Counted from the stretch's first letter, positions 3,094-9,350 are shown. The stretch: 32,000 nt of DNA from Patescibacteria group bacterium (GCA_041662745.1 JBAZRV010000003.1:90001-122000), one strand, 5' to 3'. The notes: a model not told the origin generated them from the sequence alone. Translations and numbers: made by a program.

Positions 3094-3795
3094 TTAGGCC
3101 GTTTCTTTTTTTTGTTTTACCTTGCCGAAATTAATAGCTTCGGCGATAACGCGGGTGATTAAATCAACCGAGTTGATGGCGTCGTCATTGGCCGGAATCG
3201 GATAAGTGAATAAATCAGGATTGATATTGGTATCGCACGGTCCGATAATCGGAATTTTTCTTTTTTTGGCTTCCAAAACCGCGGTTTTTTCGCGTTTGGC
3301 ATCAAGGATGAAAACGGCATCAGGCAAACGGCTCAGGTTTTCCAATCCGCCGACCATCTTGTCTAAGCGTTCAATTTCTTTGCTGATCATCACCTGTTCT
3401 TTCTTGGTGTATTTTGCCAGGGCGCCGGAATCGCGTTGTTCCTTCAGCGAACGGTATTTTTTTATCAGTTTGCCGACATTGACAAAATTAGTGAATAATC
3501 CGCCAACCCAGCGTTCCTTAATATAGGGCATGCCGGCTTGCTTGGCATATTTTTCAATTAACGGCTTGGCTTGGCTTTTGGTGCCGACAAAAAGAATGTT
3601 ACCGCCGTTTTCGCCGATTTTTTCGGCAAACTCGGCCGCCTCTTTCAGTTTGGCTAATGTTTGTTCCAGATCAATAATGTGGACCCCGTTGCGTTCGGCA
3701 AAAATGAACGGTTTCATTTTGGGGTGCCAGCGGCCTTTTTGATGGCCGAAGTGGACTCCTGCCTGGAGGAGCTCCATTAATGTTGGTAAATTCAT
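3094..3795 (-). CDS. rpsB: 30S ribosomal protein S2
   Basis: LLQAGVHFGHQKGRWHPKMKPFIF...GVHIIDL is the canonical S2 N-terminus. 233 aa. Confidence 0.95.
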   Translation of the reverse strand: MNLPTLMELLQAGVHFGHQKGRWHPKMKPFIFAERNGVHIIDLEQTLAKLKEAAEFAEKIGENGGNILFVGTKSQAKPLIEKYAKQAGMPYIKERWVGGLFTNFVNVGKLIKKYRSLKEQRDSGALAKYTKKEQVMISKEIERLDKMVGGLENLSRLPDAVFILDAKREKTAVLEAKKRKIPIIGPCDTNINPDLFTYPIPANDDAINSVDLITRVIAEAINFGKVKQKKETA

Positions 3796-3822
3796 AATTT
3801 TCCTTTCTTTCTTGGCAGTCCC

Positions 3823-3836
3823 TAATCCGCGGATTA
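3823..3836 (-). promoter_or_regulatory. 14-nt perfect palindrome in the rpsB 5' leader
   Basis: TAATCCGCGGATTA overlaps an alternative GCGG-TTAAT-CCGC hairpin, about 30 nt upstream of the rpsB ATG. Confidence 0.3.
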
Positions 3837-3921
3837 ACCGCAGATTGGCCCGATTTTAGTTAATTAAAGCTACGGGCAAGGATTAATTCAGGGCTGCTGT
3901 TTATTAATAAAATGTATTAAA

Positions 3922-3950
3922 AGATTATCATAAATCAACGGATAAGTCAA
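3922..3950 (-). promoter_or_regulatory. Candidate promoter of rpsB-tsf
   Basis: Minus strand reads TTGACT (3950-3945), 17 nt, TGaTAATCT (-10 at 3927-3922). Confidence 0.45.
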
Positions 3951-3960
3951 ATCCCTAATT

Positions 3961-3993
3961 AAAATATAAAAGCCACTCCTGGGGAGAAGTGGC
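3961..3993 (-). terminator. Intrinsic terminator after paralog 1
   Basis: Minus strand has an 8-bp stem in GCCACTTCTCCCCAGGAGTGGC followed by TTTTATATTTT. Confidence 0.6.
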
Positions 3994-4018
3994 GATAAAT
4001 GAGCGATTTTGGCCTTGG

Positions 4019-5335
4019 TCAGCTGTTGGGCCAGTACTTGCCGACTGGCCATTCGGCGATAGAAACATTGTCAATCATGACGCCGGCTTCGCTTAAACGC
4101 AATTGCGTGTTTGCGGAGATGACGTCAATAATGTGTTTCTTATGTTGCGCCAGTTCTTCCGACATGCCGGCCAGGATGCTGCCAGCGCTTGCTATTCCCG
4201 GATTGGCGAAAATAGAACAGGTTGTTTCCGTCGGCAAGCATTCGGTTAGCGCCACTATCGTCTCTCTTCTGACAACATCAGTGAGATATTCCTCAAGCCC
4301 TTCCTGTTGATGAAAGGTTTGAAGGTTTTTCAGATAGCTTTCATTGCTGAGCAGAGTGTAGCCAACAGCCAATCTCAACTCATTCCCGTCAAGTGACGCT
4401 TCAACCGCTAAACCGTCTTTGGCGGCGGCGATGCCCCGAGTGTACTTTTTGGCGAATAAATTTACAAAGCGATGATCATAGGCCAGCAGCGTATCCTTAT
4501 CATCAATGGCAAAACGTTTGTAAAATTCTCCGTCGGATCGGTTAATAAGGATAATTGAACTGTTTTTGCTTAATAAATATGACGGAGTTTTAAAAGTAAA
4601 CAAAGTTGACACGACAAGGGCTGTGATAAAGAATGCCATGATTACTGGTTTATCGTGTTTGTAAGTTGAGGTATCATGCACTATCGTAGCCGCTATTATC
4701 GCCGGTACCATAACGCAGGTAAATATGAACATTACCGCAATAACCGCGTTCGGCAAGAAAATTACCGACAAGTAATACAGATAGACTGTCATGGCGACGG
4801 CGGCAATGATTATGCTGCAAGGTATCATAAATACCGTAACGATATCTGTCAGATCATCGCCGTGTTCGCAGAACCAATTTTTTGTCCCCTTGGCTATTCG
4901 GACAAAACCGCAGAACAACCAGCCCAGGATTAGACTGACCGGACTGATGATCTTCTTTAATGTTTGTATCTTTTTGTTGGGCGGTTTTAGCAGGATCCTG
5001 GCCTGCGACAAACTGACGATCCTGTTGGATATCAGTGAGATGATCAGTTTTTTATATTGCGAGTTTAAGGTCGGCAGGAATTCCGGTTGCCAGTCCATTC
5101 CCGTGGCTAAGCGGAATAATGTGAGACCCAGCTGATGGAAGGCTTCGCGTACGTCCTTGACCGGAGTTGTCGAGCCGTAATCGACTTTATTATTATCATC
5201 AATAAAAATATTTCCCGCTTCATACTTCACCAATTCCCCTTTTTCTTTCAGACGCGCTTCCAGATCCTCCAGCAGTTCCGAGGCGATGGCATATAACAGA
5301 CCATCTCCTAATTTGATTTCGTAGCGTTTTTTCAT
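4019..5335 (-). CDS. Hypothetical membrane protein, paralog 1 (kinase C-lobe-like N-terminus, about 4 TM, SPFH/band-7-like C-terminal domain)
   Basis: The ORF track extends to a TTG at 5392. I prefer ATG 5335, preceded by AAGGAG (5345-5350, reverse). It is paralogous to 5513-7060: IFIDDNNKV...REAFHQLGLTLFRLATG vs VFINDSRKV...REALYYLGVTLYHVATG, and VNLFAKKYTRGI vs VNLFTKSYAPGI. Confidence 0.75.
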   Translation of the reverse strand: MKKRYEIKLGDGLLYAIASELLEDLEARLKEKGELVKYEAGNIFIDDNNKVDYGSTTPVKDVREAFHQLGLTLFRLATGMDWQPEFLPTLNSQYKKLIISLISNRIVSLSQARILLKPPNKKIQTLKKIISPVSLILGWLFCGFVRIAKGTKNWFCEHGDDLTDIVTVFMIPCSIIIAAVAMTVYLYYLSVIFLPNAVIAVMFIFTCVMVPAIIAATIVHDTSTYKHDKPVIMAFFITALVVSTLFTFKTPSYLLSKNSSIILINRSDGEFYKRFAIDDKDTLLAYDHRFVNLFAKKYTRGIAAAKDGLAVEASLDGNELRLAVGYTLLSNESYLKNLQTFHQQEGLEEYLTDVVRRETIVALTECLPTETTCSIFANPGIASAGSILAGMSEELAQHKKHIIDVISANTQLRLSEAGVMIDNVSIAEWPVGKYWPNS

Positions 5336-5429
5336 GGTCACGTTCTCCTTTATGGTTGCGGTAACTGTTGTTTTGGTTAATTTTAAGGCCAAAATTGTAA
5401 GGTGCTTGTTATCTGCATAACAATATGGC

Positions 5430-5458
5430 AGATTAGCATTATGTTATGAAAATGTCAA
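5430..5458 (-). promoter_or_regulatory. Candidate promoter of paralog 1
   Basis: Minus strand reads TTGACA (5458-5453), 17 nt, TGcTAATCT (-10 at 5435-5430). Nearly the same architecture as 7154-7182. Confidence 0.5.
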
Positions 5459-5465
5459 ATAATCA

Positions 5466-5499
5466 ATAAATGAAAAGCCACCTCCTCATGGGAAGTGGC
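5466..5499 (-). terminator. Intrinsic terminator after paralog 2
   Basis: Minus strand has the GCCACTTCCCATGAGGAGGTGGC stem followed by TTTTCATTTATT. Sequence resembles the terminator at 3961-3993. Confidence 0.6.
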
Positions 5500-5512
5500 A
5501 AAAATGAACTAG

Positions 5513-7060
5513 TTATTCAGTTTCCTGTTCGGCCGTTACTTTGGCCGGCGGATTGGCCGGCTGGGATGGCGTTTGCTTTTCAGCCGTTTCTCCCGGCTTT
5601 TTCGGCTCTTTGACTTCAATGTAGTTATACTGATTCTTGAATTGTTGGCGCAATTGGCCTTGAATATTGTCCATGATTTGCCGGCGTTGTTTATCAATGA
5701 CGGCCTGCTGACGCGACAACAGTTCGTTTCTGACTAGGCGGACGGTAAGCTCGCGCAGGACCTGATAATCATTTTTTGACAGCGTGCCGTCCGCGCCCTT
5801 AGCTTCAACGGTTATTTCTTTAAGCTCCTGCTCAATTGCCAGGCGGGACTTAATGGGGACAACGCTTTCAGCTAGAGCTTTTTGAACCGCGACTTGACCG
5901 GCGTTAATCAGCTCTTGTTCTAGATCGGCTTGCGTTTGCTTATTCTCCGTCATCCGTTTCCAGTCGCTTTCAAATGTCGCCTGGTCGGTGATGGCATACT
6001 TGATCCAGAAGCAGAACTTTTCTCCGTTTTTATCCTTATCCAGCGGCGCTTCCACCGGGATGCCTTCATGCTGAATGAGTATGCCCGGCGCATAGCTTTT
6101 GGTGAATAAATTGACATACGCAGCTTCGTAATGCGGGATGTAATGTTTATCTTCGCCGTCGGCGATTCGGCCGATCAGGTTTCCGCTGGAGCGATCAATT
6201 ACTACTAAGGGAGGACAAAAGCCAGTCGTTGGAGTCTCAAAGATTTCATAAATTGAAAGCGAGGCAATCAGGATTAAAAAGGCAATCCAGCCCCTGAAGA
6301 TGCAATCATCCTCCCGCAGATCGGTGAGCATGGCTGATATCACAGTTATTATGACCCCTAAAAAGAAGGAGAAAAATACAATTAGAAAACCGCAAATTAC
6401 AGCCATAGCGATACTAAAATAAATAGCATTAACAGAAGCCAGGCAAATGAACGAAGCGCCGGCGATGATAATCAGCATTACGTGGGCGATAAGCGAAAAT
6501 TTACGTTTTATAAACCTCAGCAGTTTCAACAGTTTGGCCGCTGTTTTTTTTGTTTGCGGATAAATATTGCCAGCTTGAGCTCCCAGCCGTTTAAAAGCTG
6601 AGACCGCTCCCTGGCCGATCAGCGTAATCAGCCAGCAGAGCGGGTTTAACAGCAATTTGGTTTTACGTGCCAGCTTTTTGATTCGGCTGGGTCGGATCAG
6701 GAGTTCTTCCACTTGCTTGAAGTTGACCGCTTGGCCGGATAGCAATAATTCCACTAACGGCCAGAGGTCAGAGTCAAACGGTTCATAGCCGGCATCGGCG
6801 GCGCGCAGGGCTGAATCGTTTATTTCCGATTTGCCCGTGGCCACATGATACAAGGTAACGCCTAAATAATAGAGCGCTTCGCGAATATTTTTGATCTGCG
6901 AAGTCGGCAGGGTGTCGCAGACAACCTTTCGGCTGTCATTGATGAATACCGTATCCGGGTCAAAACGCAATACGACGTCGTTGTTTGCCGCTTCGCGCAA
7001 CCTGTTAGTCAGGGTTTGGGCGATAAGAAAAAGATCTTCTTCCCGTTGCCAGGTTCTCAT
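5513..7060 (-). CDS. Hypothetical membrane protein, paralog 2 (kinase C-lobe-like N-terminus, about 4 TM, SPFH-like domain, long coiled coil, Pro/Glu-rich tail)
   Basis: 515 aa. ATG 7060 with AAGGAG (7066-7071, reverse) 5 nt upstream. Hydrophobic core at roughly residues 140-280. The C-terminal region is rich in Q/E/K heptads. Confidence 0.8.
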   Translation of the reverse strand: MRTWQREEDLFLIAQTLTNRLREAANNDVVLRFDPDTVFINDSRKVVCDTLPTSQIKNIREALYYLGVTLYHVATGKSEINDSALRAADAGYEPFDSDLWPLVELLLSGQAVNFKQVEELLIRPSRIKKLARKTKLLLNPLCWLITLIGQGAVSAFKRLGAQAGNIYPQTKKTAAKLLKLLRFIKRKFSLIAHVMLIIIAGASFICLASVNAIYFSIAMAVICGFLIVFFSFFLGVIITVISAMLTDLREDDCIFRGWIAFLILIASLSIYEIFETPTTGFCPPLVVIDRSSGNLIGRIADGEDKHYIPHYEAAYVNLFTKSYAPGILIQHEGIPVEAPLDKDKNGEKFCFWIKYAITDQATFESDWKRMTENKQTQADLEQELINAGQVAVQKALAESVVPIKSRLAIEQELKEITVEAKGADGTLSKNDYQVLRELTVRLVRNELLSRQQAVIDKQRRQIMDNIQGQLRQQFKNQYNYIEVKEPKKPGETAEKQTPSQPANPPAKVTAEQETE

Positions 7061-7153
7061 GGTTTCTCCTTTGGCTTTTTGGCCGGTTGGCTGTCTGTAA
7101 ACTTAATGTTTTTTAAATTTTAATGTGCTTGTCCGGTTATTCCAGAATATGAA

Positions 7154-7182
7154 ATCTTAGCATATTTTAGATAAAATGTCAA
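7154..7182 (-). promoter_or_regulatory. Candidate promoter of paralog 2
   Basis: Minus strand reads TTGACA (7182-7177), 17 nt, TGcTAAGAT (-10 at 7159-7154). Back-to-back with the rpmE promoter. Confidence 0.5.
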
Positions 7183-7186
7183 TATG

Positions 7187-7215
7187 TTGACATTTTGGCT
7201 AAAATCGGATATAAT
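7187..7215 (+). promoter_or_regulatory. Candidate promoter of rpmE
   Basis: TTGACA (7187-7192), 17 nt, TATAAT (7210-7215). Both hexamers match consensus. Confidence 0.6.
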
Positions 7216-7248
7216 TAGGCATATTATCAATTAACGTATTAAGCGTTT

Positions 7249-7551
7249 ATGAAAAAAGAAGTCCATCCTCAGTATTTTCCCCAAGCCAAGGTGATCTGCG
7301 CCTGCGGCAATGTTTTTAATGTCGGATCAACCCGAGAGGAAATCCAAGTTGAAATCTGTTCCGCTTGCCATCCGTTTTATACCGGCAAACAAAAATTACT
7401 GGATACGGCCCGTCGCGTTGATAAATTCGTTAAACGTTCCGAGGCTAAATCCGTTAAGATTGGCGGTAAAAAAGTCAAAAAAGAAAAACAGAAAGCTATC
7501 AAGGCCGCCAAGAAAGCCGAGCAAGAGGGAGTGAAAATCGTCAAAAAATAA
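7249..7551 (+). CDS. rpmE: 50S ribosomal protein L31 (Zn-ribbon type) with Lys-rich C-terminal extension
   Basis: MKKEVHPQY...CACGN...[13 protein letters not shown] is the L31 signature. About 35 extra K-rich residues follow. Confidence 0.9.
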
Positions 7552-8750: not shown

Positions 8751-9350
8751 TTAATAGCGGTCGCCGGGACCGTCAGGCAGCTTTTTATGCGGTCGGAGCT
8801 GGACGGCGTCTTCCAGCTTGAAGCGTTTACGGGTGGCTTGGTAGTAAGCCAGCAAGAGCAGGGCCTGTTTGGTTTCTAATTGCCTGCCCCAACGCAATTT
8901 ACAGAGCCCGATAAGGTATTCGGCGTGGCCGTCCTGAAACGCCGGTGACTCGTGGATGGCGCGAATCGGTTGCCAGTTTTCATTAGTCAAGATTAGAACC
9001 ATGTTTTTGTAAGGCGAAACGCGGAAAAGACGAATAAGATAATTGATTTTGCCGGTATAGTGCATAAGCGAGAATAACCACATCCAGTATAGACTGGATT
9101 CGTTATCCTGAATGGGCTCGCCGCTCAGGCGACAGGTCATGGCCACAGATGGCGGCAACTTGAATTCTTTAATGAGAACTGAACGCGGAATTTTGGCATA
9201 ATCCATGCTGGTAAAGCATAGAGCCGCTCTGACAGCCTTGTCCGGCAGTTGGCCGGTTGCCTTGGCTTCCCAAAATTCAACTATGGCCCTCAGATAAGCA
9301 TCAATGATTTGCCTGTATTCTTCCAGAGCGTCGCTACAGCCGCAGGACAT
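8751..9350 (-). CDS. Hypothetical protein (199 aa), no family recognised
   Basis: ATG 9350 with GGAGG (9359-9363, reverse) 8 nt upstream, followed by its own terminator. Lies antisense between prfA and prmC. Confidence 0.65.
   Translation of the reverse strand: MSCGCSDALEEYRQIIDAYLRAIVEFWEAKATGQLPDKAVRAALCFTSMDYAKIPRSVLIKEFKLPPSVAMTCRLSGEPIQDNESSLYWMWLFSLMHYTGKINYLIRLFRVSPYKNMVLILTNENWQPIRAIHESPAFQDGHAEYLIGLCKLRWGRQLETKQALLLLAYYQATRKRFKLEDAVQLRPHKKLPDGPGDRY

Follow-up and report, generated by a model that had tools for sequence, protein, structure and literature searches.

Tandem, strongly diverged membrane proteins with a probable kinase C-lobe remnant in a Patescibacteria genome, and the signals that flank them

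Within a stretch of 32,000 nucleotides from a Patescibacteria group bacterium (GCA_041662745.1 JBAZRV010000003.1:90001-122000; the whole stretch is here called the window), positions 4,019 to 7,182 hold two neighbouring genes, gene 1 and gene 2, which encode the proteins P0001 and P0002. The locus raises a double question: what are these two proteins, and why do the noncoding flanks of two genes that have diverged so far still align? The two are paralogs, as BLASTP aligns them at E = 4e-18 with 25% identity over about 340 residues spanning the N-terminal domain, the membrane block and the start of the C-terminal domain, and the short peptide motifs quoted in an earlier, sequence-only reading of the window are present in both, so that its claims of a shared architecture and of tandem, strongly diverged paralogy are upheld. 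The same architecture stands in the same synteny in other genomes (L001, L002), where the gene 1 orthologs are 66% and 56% identical, and the arrangement is therefore not a mis-assembly. The reading that we favour, with moderate confidence, is that of two separately transcribed members of a small, unannotated Patescibacteria family, each combining a kinase C-lobe remnant, transmembrane (TM) helices and an alpha/beta domain, with flanks made up of generic signals under selection and of a leader motif that recurs across the genome.

The N-terminal domain as a probable kinase C-lobe remnant

The family consensus of the N-terminal domain reads D..L..v...L.......G.Y..FPPe.IeI...gkv.F......LRe.LR.LGVTLYHLATGeSE.N..S...DGY..p..S.LWP.I..LLSG.A.s.pQiE. 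The sequence-only reading had likened this region to the C-lobe of a Ser/Thr protein kinase stripped of its glycine loop, VAIK, HRD and DFG motifs, and both the likeness and the losses are borne out. Given a 19-sequence alignment as input, AlphaFold2 (AF2) models residues 1-125 of gene 2 with a predicted local distance difference test score (pLDDT) of about 90; from the single sequence of P0001 the model is useless (pLDDT 41). With the whole gene 2 model as query, 46 of the 50 Foldseek PDB matches listed, including all of the top 39, are kinases or pseudokinases, among them Aurora A (probability 1.00), GAK, SGK1, PLK4, the Rv3910/MviN pseudokinase and YukC/EssB, with alignments of about 130-160 columns and many probabilities of 0.9-1.0, and the BFVD matches of the same model include viral kinases too. 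The E-values of the PDB matches are weak (0.04-1) because the kinase-like part makes up just a quarter of the query.

Profile comparisons point the same way. The best relevant match in a profile search of PDB sequences is MKK4 (E 0.11), with LGVTLYHLATG placed on DVWSLGITLYELATG and FPPekI on HRDIKPSNIL. Alignment by hhalign to 16 kinases of the candidate phyla radiation (CPR), chosen only via their Pfam Pkinase matches, reaches 67% probability (E 5e-5, 24 columns); against three real kinases the probability rises to 92%, a biased figure in that these kinases had been selected through the shared motif. In these alignments FPPexI falls on the catalytic-loop K-P-x-N strand and LGVTLYHLATG on kinase subdomain IX, and the activation segment is missing. 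Among Pfam families, Pkinase is the top-ranked weak match for the N-domains (best E 0.056, in 1 of 33 members). Helices E, F, H and I and the helix F motif were found in these comparisons, with Foldseek probability up to 1.00, and the C-lobe alone is present, so that the complete bilobal pseudokinase fold was not found. The N-lobe with its Gly-rich loop and VAIK lysine is missing, as the domain is about 125 residues long and its first element, 6-10 residues into the protein, corresponds to helix E. HRDxKxxN and DFG are likewise absent, with Y..FPPE.I and a variable (K)V.F/Y at the aligned positions; the alignments also show that the activation segment has been deleted and that neither catalytic Asp nor catalytic Asn is left. 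The N-domain is very probably a C-lobe-only, non-catalytic remnant of a kinase.

HMMER, by contrast, gives no significant kinase match to the family: P0001 and P0002 return nothing against Pfam PF00069 at E <= 10, none of 38 family members matches it at E <= 0.01, and a six-frame search finds no Pkinase match anywhere in the host genome. This silence, together with Foldseek E-values of 0.04 or worse and an unbiased hhalign alignment that spans 24 columns only, is what speaks for an unrelated helical domain that mimics the kinase C-lobe, with LGVTLYHLATG convergent. We consider such mimicry very unlikely, given the share of kinases and pseudokinases among the listed structures, many at high probability, the collinear placement of the catalytic-loop strands and of helix F as elements apart from each other, and the segment S.LWP.I..LLSG.A...P.IE, which we take to fit kinase helices H and I (subdomains X-XI). 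A narrower N-domain peptide pattern, used in a locus search, retrieved mostly true kinases.

Kinase-fold remnants that serve purely as interaction modules are well known in eukaryotes (KIND, pseudokinases), and few bacterial cases are known (EssB/YukC, MviN). KIND is a protein-protein interaction module that binds the formin FSI tail (PMC11231147). Like the N-domain of the pair, it is stand-alone, catalytically dead and derived from the kinase C-lobe only, a likeness of kind and not of family: KIND is eukaryotic, about 200 residues long and soluble, whereas the domain described here comes from CPR bacteria, is about 125 residues long, has no activation segment and is joined to membrane helices. 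The KIND model PF16474 matches neither P0001 and P0002 nor anything in this genome (both at E <= 10), the prokaryotic control genomes being silent too, and the N-domain is most likely an independent reduction rather than a descendant of KIND.

Closer in setting are EssB/YukC and MviN (Rv3910), which like the pair are bacterial integral membrane proteins with a dead kinase-fold domain and which appear among the Foldseek matches (3uqc, 3otv, 6z0f); the cytoplasmic kinase-fold domain of EssB, which is without catalytic residues, is thought to be an adaptor (PMC3526858). They differ in keeping the full bilobal fold, where the pair has the C-lobe only, three to four membrane helices and another C-domain. 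Furthermore, EssB has one membrane helix and MviN belongs to a flippase, and their partners are the FtsK-type EssC or FhaA/PknB, as against the classical-clade AAA+ neighbour that the present family has elsewhere. PknB-like membrane Hanks kinases share with the pair the order of kinase-fold domain, membrane segment and C-terminal domain, and the helix F motif of the pair differs very little from the one in real kinases such as those of L016-L018 (DIYALGATLYHLATG). Unlike Hanks-type kinases, the pair is without N-lobe, Gly loop, VAIK lysine, HRD, DFG and activation segment, and leaves the Pkinase model unmatched.

Membrane block and C-terminal domain

The four TM helices that the sequence-only reading had assigned to each protein are predicted in gene 1, whereas in gene 2 the first hydrophobic helix is weak; distant family members have three core membrane helices. 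The two counts would have different consequences for topology, in that four spans would leave the soluble domains on the same side of the membrane and three true spans would put the C-domain outside the cell.

The C-terminal alpha/beta domain carries the family motifs V.V(D/N)R..GEF..R and (I/V)N.F.(Y/K)K...G. In gene 2 the AF2 model bears out the earlier claim of an added Q/E/K-rich stretch and a Pro-rich tail, the former as long helices and the latter as predicted disorder. The assignment of the C-domain to the SPFH/band-7 proteins, by contrast, is not supported. None of 23 C-domains matches Band_7 (PF01145) even at E <= 5, the profile search against the PDB yields coiled-coil noise only and no SPFH entry, and no SPFH structure is among the 50 Foldseek PDB matches listed for the whole gene 2 model. 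By hhalign the C-domain reaches 0.6% probability against the host genome's own SPFH protein and 3.6% (p = 0.012) against a 31-sequence SPFH profile.

A divergent SPFH/band-7 domain, which would form oligomeric membrane rings or cages like those of HflK/C, flotillin and FliL with the pseudokinase remnant as cargo adaptor, would be compatible with the reading that we favour. In the alignment at p = 0.012 the family's I.Y.I strand and the helix after it are matched to a strand and helix that are their plausible counterparts in SPFH. Among the BFVD matches to the whole model, a viral SPFH/Band 7 model stands at rank 3 as a weak match (E 0.19, prob 0.57, 220 columns), and one family member weakly matches FliL (E 0.013). 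The AF2 element order of membrane-proximal beta-sheet, helices, long helix and terminal strand also resembles that of SPFH proteins such as stomatin, HflK/C, flotillin and FliL, where helices and then long coiled-coil-like helices come after a beta-rich domain next to the membrane; in gene 2, however, the long helices lie inside the domain and not after it. With no significant match in sequence or structure, with the low hhalign probabilities, and with an ordinary SPFH protein already encoded in the host genome (110.9 bits on Band_7), we regard an SPFH identity as unlikely.

A patchy family and its AAA+ neighbour

Neither P0001 nor P0002 matches a Pfam or NCBIfam model, and none of the 38 family members carries a relevant Pfam domain. 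A scan of 1.84 billion representative proteins returned 35 homologs of P0002 at E <= 1e-3, and two extra word-index searches for homologs, based on the family alignment in one case and on an N-domain region in the other, returned close relatives only. In these searches the family is seen in Patescibacteria only, in 7 of 401 genomes of the class, and copies stand in tandem at several loci: three in L001, two in L020, two in L025, three soluble ones in L021, and the adjacent P0009 and P0013.

Outside this genus, all ten informative loci have a gene for an AAA+ ATPase of about 807 aa directly upstream. The nine of them with DNA encode one and the same protein (47-76% identical), which is far more conserved than the remnant family, and combines one classical-clade AAA+ domain (CDC48/PAN/FtsH-like) with 500 N-terminal residues that match no known family. 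Soluble members, in which the N-domain has an insert of about 20 residues and is joined to a different C-domain without membrane helices, also follow the ATPase (L021:2048-5463, L022:2454-3422), in L021 as three genes in tandem. As the N-domain is what membrane and soluble members behind the ATPase have in common, it is therefore the constant partner of the ATPase, which suggests that it acts as a docking module. The ATPase, searched for by its N-terminal part, was not found in this genome, nor in the other searched genome of the genus; within the taxonomic family that part occurs in G152 only, which represents the one other genus, of 19, with a pseudokinase-remnant gene. As a separate observation, small conserved open reading frames (ORFs; about 170, 70 and 66 aa) precede the AAA+ gene in two contigs.

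The arrays themselves have been rearranged. L001 has three genes (A, B, C), and the window and L002 have two. The N-domain of gene 2 in the window is A-type (78% identity to L001 A, 43% to L001 B) and its body is B-type (66-70% identity to L001 B and L002 gene 2, 26% to L001 A), whereas L002 gene 2 is B-type throughout and yet lies behind the leader that drives gene A in L001. These mixed identities and the leader swap show that paralogs have recombined and thereby reshaped the array, the breakpoint lying near residue 135. Sequence change has also been fast, as orthologs of the pair are 56-66% identical in protein sequence vs. 89-97% for rpsB and rpmE.

In light of these results we propose that the N-domain would have kept the kinase C-lobe from helix E through helix I while its activation segment was deleted and every catalytic motif lost, and that three to four membrane helices would then lead to an alpha/beta C-domain of 180-240 residues, which in gene 2 would be extended by long helices and a disordered Pro-rich tail. 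By analogy of fold with EssB (PMC3526858) and from gene order, the proteins may act as non-catalytic membrane scaffolds or adaptors, and the C-lobe remnant may be a protein-docking module like KIND, EssB/YukC and MviN. The likely partner in other lineages would be the conserved AAA+ ATPase encoded directly upstream, and this genus would have lost that ATPase and kept, duplicated and recombined the membrane proteins. A more specific version is a tentative possibility, namely that the family belongs to an undescribed two-part membrane system of Patescibacteria, in which the C-lobe remnants of one to three fast-evolving proteins dock the dedicated classical-clade unfoldase and of which this genus holds an uncoupled, motorless variant; in such a system a remnant protein would either sit in the membrane and carry an outward or SPFH-like domain or be soluble and carry a different C-domain.

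The same patchy occurrence, tandem arrays, domain shuffling and fast evolution beside slow neighbours would also suit a conflict or host-interaction module, for phage defence or for contact between an epibiont and its host, in which an AAA+ motor works with outward-facing, fast-evolving membrane proteins and of which the copies in the window would be motorless remnants. The AAA+ protein weakly matches defence ATPases (IetA, E 9e-7, and TRIP13), and the three core membrane helices of distant members would put the C-domain outside the cell. We find this reading rather doubtful: P0001 and P0002 are without a PADLOC match, the matches of the AAA+ protein are limited to the generic ATPase core, where the CDC48, PAN and FtsH models score better, and the genes are surrounded by core translation genes, with synteny conserved, strong promoters that look constitutive and no mobile-element genes nearby.

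The reading of the pair as membrane proteins with a C-lobe remnant would, if correct, add a new kind of pseudokinase-derived module, a bacterial family of C-lobes fused to membrane helices, and would open a way into a conserved but uncharacterised AAA+ system of CPR bacteria, which are poorly understood. A Pfam or NCBIfam model, which the family lacks, could be built from the present alignments.

Flanking signals and a recurrent leader block

The sequence-only reading had further claimed that the noncoding flanks of the two genes align block by block, and the -35 elements, the extended -10 elements, CATATT in both upstream regions, a leader block, the Shine-Dalgarno sequences and the terminators were all located (Table 1); only the -35 string of gene 1 had been misquoted, as the string common to both genes is TTGACATTTT and gene 1 has TTTGACATTTT, not ATTGACATTTT. 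Each gene has a predicted sigma70-type promoter with -35 and extended -10 at 17 nt, that of gene 2 agreeing at 10 of 12 positions in the promoter scan and with TG present, a leader of about 88 nt, and a predicted intrinsic terminator with a GC-rich hairpin and a T run. The gene 2 terminator ends 14 nt ahead of the -35 of gene 1. Terminator stems vary in compensating fashion among orthologs. The idea of a generic terminator stem was rejected, there being just five GCCAC...GTGGC-T4 terminators in the whole genome, of which the pair's two are the most alike; their likeness fits a common origin and proves little.

The similarity of the flanks goes beyond what AT-rich sequence would give. Aligned over the whole upstream region, the pair scores z = 6.6 and none of 2000 dinucleotide shuffles reached its score; for the leader alone z = 2.8, and 50 of 2000 shuffles reached the score. 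Ranked within a null of the 74 definable promoter-to-ATG units of the same genome, the pair stands 21st of 2701 (top 0.8%), a likeness that is real without being extreme for this genome. Across three genomes (window, L001, L002) the upstream regions are 78-83% identical, whereas the fourfold-degenerate sites of the gene pair are 50-66% identical, and promoters and leaders are therefore under purifying selection; the coding DNA is 38-74% identical, with 64-74% for gene 1 and lower values for gene 2 because gene 2 is a mosaic of paralogs. Aligned across six sequences, the upstream regions are invariant in the -35 and the extended -10, at TATT close to the start site, in part of the leader block and in the Shine-Dalgarno sequence. 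On the reading that we favour, each set of flanks would consist of a near-consensus -35 and extended -10, a 5'-proximal hairpin, the -10-like block AGCAC-N-TTA-N-AAT, a strong Shine-Dalgarno sequence and an intrinsic terminator, and purifying selection would have held these in place while the fast-evolving coding sequences diverged.

The shared leader block follows the pattern ACAAGCAC-N-TTA-N-AATTT and lies 23-24 nt from the -10 in both leaders. As an exact 18-nt string it has two sites only in the 1.0-Mb genome, both in this pair; relaxed forms recur elsewhere. GCAC[ACT]TTA-N-AAT has six sites in the genome, five of them in sense-orientation 5' leaders, 25-58 nt ahead of a Shine-Dalgarno sequence and start codon, and RGMACNT(T)ANAAT has 15, ten of them in 5' leaders of unrelated genes, often followed by TTAA and starting 13-36 nt after an upstream -10. 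Further motif sites include G000 C1:44387, C1:158295, C1:232373, C1:234171, C1:82504, C4:107280, C5:85744, C5:5441 and C6:8077. Judged from their sequences, the genes behind the motif may encode a phosphoglycerate-mutase-like protein, a protein like phosphoribosyl-pyrophosphate synthase, an archaeal-type S-adenosylmethionine synthetase, an HD-domain protein and several unknowns. In the leaders at C1 232373 and 234171 no other promoter was seen between the preceding terminator and the gene, and the TAAAAT or TACAAT of the block is the best -10 candidate. The motif is retained in an orthologous leader of the sister genome G324 and occurs, after a hairpin, in a leader of G152, from another genus. 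At the gene 1 block the promoter scan offers TTGTTA-18-TACAAT as an alternative reading.

The sequence-only reading had seen in these blocks a shared regulator or RNA element, and part of that stands, as the upstream regions are under purifying selection and the block is conserved in orthologs. If the two paralogs alone were under common control, by a cis-regulatory RNA or by a dedicated regulator with its operator in the leaders, this would account for the confinement of the exact 18-mer to the two leaders, for the equal offset of the block from the -10, for upstream conservation above the neutral proxy, and for the hairpin that opens both leaders, which in gene 2 orthologs stays paired via G-U wobbles, a hint of RNA-level structure from two changes only. 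The hairpin stems, however, differ between the two paralog types, the relaxed motif precedes ten unrelated genes, and the pair is just 21st among the promoter-unit pairs; no covariance model of Rfam 15 matches over 3700-7400 on either strand at E <= 1, RNAalifold finds no consensus structure in six leaders, and leader folding energies are no better than those of shuffles (z-scores -1.3 to +0.1). Dedicated control of the pair is thus distinctly unlikely, and on the favoured reading the block is not a private riboswitch or operator of these two genes. We read it as a general leader or promoter-proximal element of this genome, which could act either as a second promoter without a -35 or as a sigma-dependent pause site, both of which rely on a -10-like hexamer; the form AGMAC-N-TTAAAAT may mark a control element close to the promoters of this lineage that has yet to be described. 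The regulatory part of the locus is otherwise mostly ordinary, and a leader motif common to at least ten genes could help to define transcription signals in an uncultured lineage.

Two other ideas about the block were rejected. Pairing of its CACCUU with AAGGAG as an anti-Shine-Dalgarno element fails in that CCUU is present in only four of six leaders and gene 2 of the window has CACAUU, and CIRCE, LexA and sigma-E-like elements misfit the motif instances in half-sites, spacing or -10 part.

Besides the silence of HMMER, the weak Foldseek E-values and the bias of the higher hhalign figure given above, three further points weigh against the favoured reading of proteins and flanks. The partnership with the AAA+ ATPase is drawn from gene order alone, and the genome in question is itself without the partner. 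Judging by its K/R-rich linker, gene 2 may have a first hydrophobic helix that does not cross the membrane, which would put the C-domain outside the cell. Finally, the leader blocks of the two paralogs agree at 16 of 18 positions in this genome only, the gene 2 orthologs having ACTGGAACCTTGAAAATTT and ATTGGCACCTTAAAATTT, and the agreement could reflect local gene conversion rather than ancient retention.

Elsewhere in the genome, the most similar pair of promoter-to-ATG units lies outside the window, at G000 C1:71272 and C1:64245 on the minus strand (about 140 nt each; local score 39 vs. a mean of 11). These two units share TATTAGC...AGCT(A/G)ATT(T/C)GCACCTAAAAA(T/C)GG and later blocks, and may be a repeated structured leader.

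Table 1. Coordinates of the gene pair, its protein domains and flanking signals in the window, and of the AAA+ gene at other loci
Feature	Position	Strand	Basis
Gene 1 (P0001), 438 aa, paralog type C	4019..5335 incl. stop codon	minus	ORF and orthologs in same synteny
Gene 2 (P0002), 515 aa, chimera of A-type N-domain and B-type body	5513..7060 incl. stop codon	minus	ORF and domain-wise identities
Gene 1 N-terminal domain, residues 1-125, kinase C-lobe-like	4961..5335	minus	alignment to gene 2 N-domain; family profile vs. kinases
Gene 2 N-terminal domain, residues 1-125, kinase C-lobe-like	6686..7060	minus	AF2 and Foldseek
Gene 1 hydrophobic block, residues about 129-250, four predicted TM helices	4586..4951	minus	Kyte-Doolittle scan
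Gene 2 membrane block, residues about 139-277, one weak and three strong predicted helices, K/R-rich linker between first and second	6230..6646	minus	AF2 and Kyte-Doolittle
Gene 1 C-terminal alpha/beta domain, residues 251-438	4022..4585	minus	family alignment; no known family matched
Gene 2 C-terminal domain, residues 278-494: beta-sheet, helices, long Q/E/K-rich helices, final strand	5579..6229	minus	AF2 pLDDT 80-95
Gene 2 Pro/Lys/Glu-rich tail, residues 495-515, predicted disordered	5516..5578	minus	pLDDT below 50
Gene 1 promoter: TTGACA (-35, 5453-5458), 17-nt spacer incl. TG, TAATCT (TGC-TAATCT 5430-5438)	5430..5458	minus	invariant in three genomes
Gene 2 promoter: TTGACA (-35, 7177-7182), 17-nt spacer incl. 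TG, TAAGAT (TGC-TAAGAT 7154-7162)	7154..7182	minus	promoter scan; identical in three genomes
Gene 1 5'-proximal hairpin TTGTTAT-GCAG-ATAACAA	5406..5423	minus	alignment and folding
Gene 2 5'-proximal hairpin TCTGG-AATAA-CCGGA	7132..7146	minus	alignment and folding
Gene 1 leader block ACAAGCACCTTACAATTT, contains -10-like hexamer TACAAT	5392..5409	minus	located by sequence, conserved in orthologs
Gene 2 leader block ACAAGCACATTAAAATTT, contains -10-like hexamer TAAAAT	7115..7132	minus	located by sequence
Gene 1 Shine-Dalgarno AAAGGAGAA	5343..5351	minus	sequence
Gene 2 Shine-Dalgarno AAAGGAGAA	7064..7072	minus	sequence
Gene 1 intrinsic terminator GCCACTTCTCCCCAGGAGTGGC and T run	3962..3993 (stem-loop 3972-3993)	minus	terminator scan
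Gene 2 intrinsic terminator GCCACTTCCCATGAGGAGGTGGC and T run	5467..5499 (stem-loop 5477-5499)	minus	terminator scan
AAA+ ATPase gene	L015:1370-3790; also upstream ORFs in L007-L011, L021, L022, L025		

The host genome (1.02 Mb, 98% complete, GC 44.6%) is that of an ultra-small bacterium from groundwater and is assigned to Candidatus Buchananbacteria, its closest named relatives being Candidatus Buchananbacteria and Patescibacteria metagenome-assembled genomes. Pfam matches confirm the position of the pair between rpsB-tsf and rpmE-prfA, with rpsB, tsf and then a PSP1 gene downstream of gene 1, and rpmE, prfA and prmC divergent from gene 2. Between prfA and prmC lies a 199-aa ORF without a Pfam match (8751-9350, minus), and an equal-sized ORF occupies the same position in both related genomes. 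The rpmE and gene 2 promoters are divergent, and at 7173-7196 their -35 boxes make up a perfect inverted repeat of 10 nt, AAAATGTCAA-TATG-TTGACATTTT, with 4 nt between its halves; this intergenic promoter region is nearly identical in three genomes, whose fourfold-degenerate sites are about 60-70% identical. On the other side of the pair, a leader of about 165 nt (3796-3960) separates rpsB from a TTGACT/TGATAAT promoter. This leader shows 69-81% identity among three genomes, includes a GC-rich inverted repeat (CCGCGGATTA...) that is conserved, and has no Rfam match; it could be an S2 autoregulatory leader.

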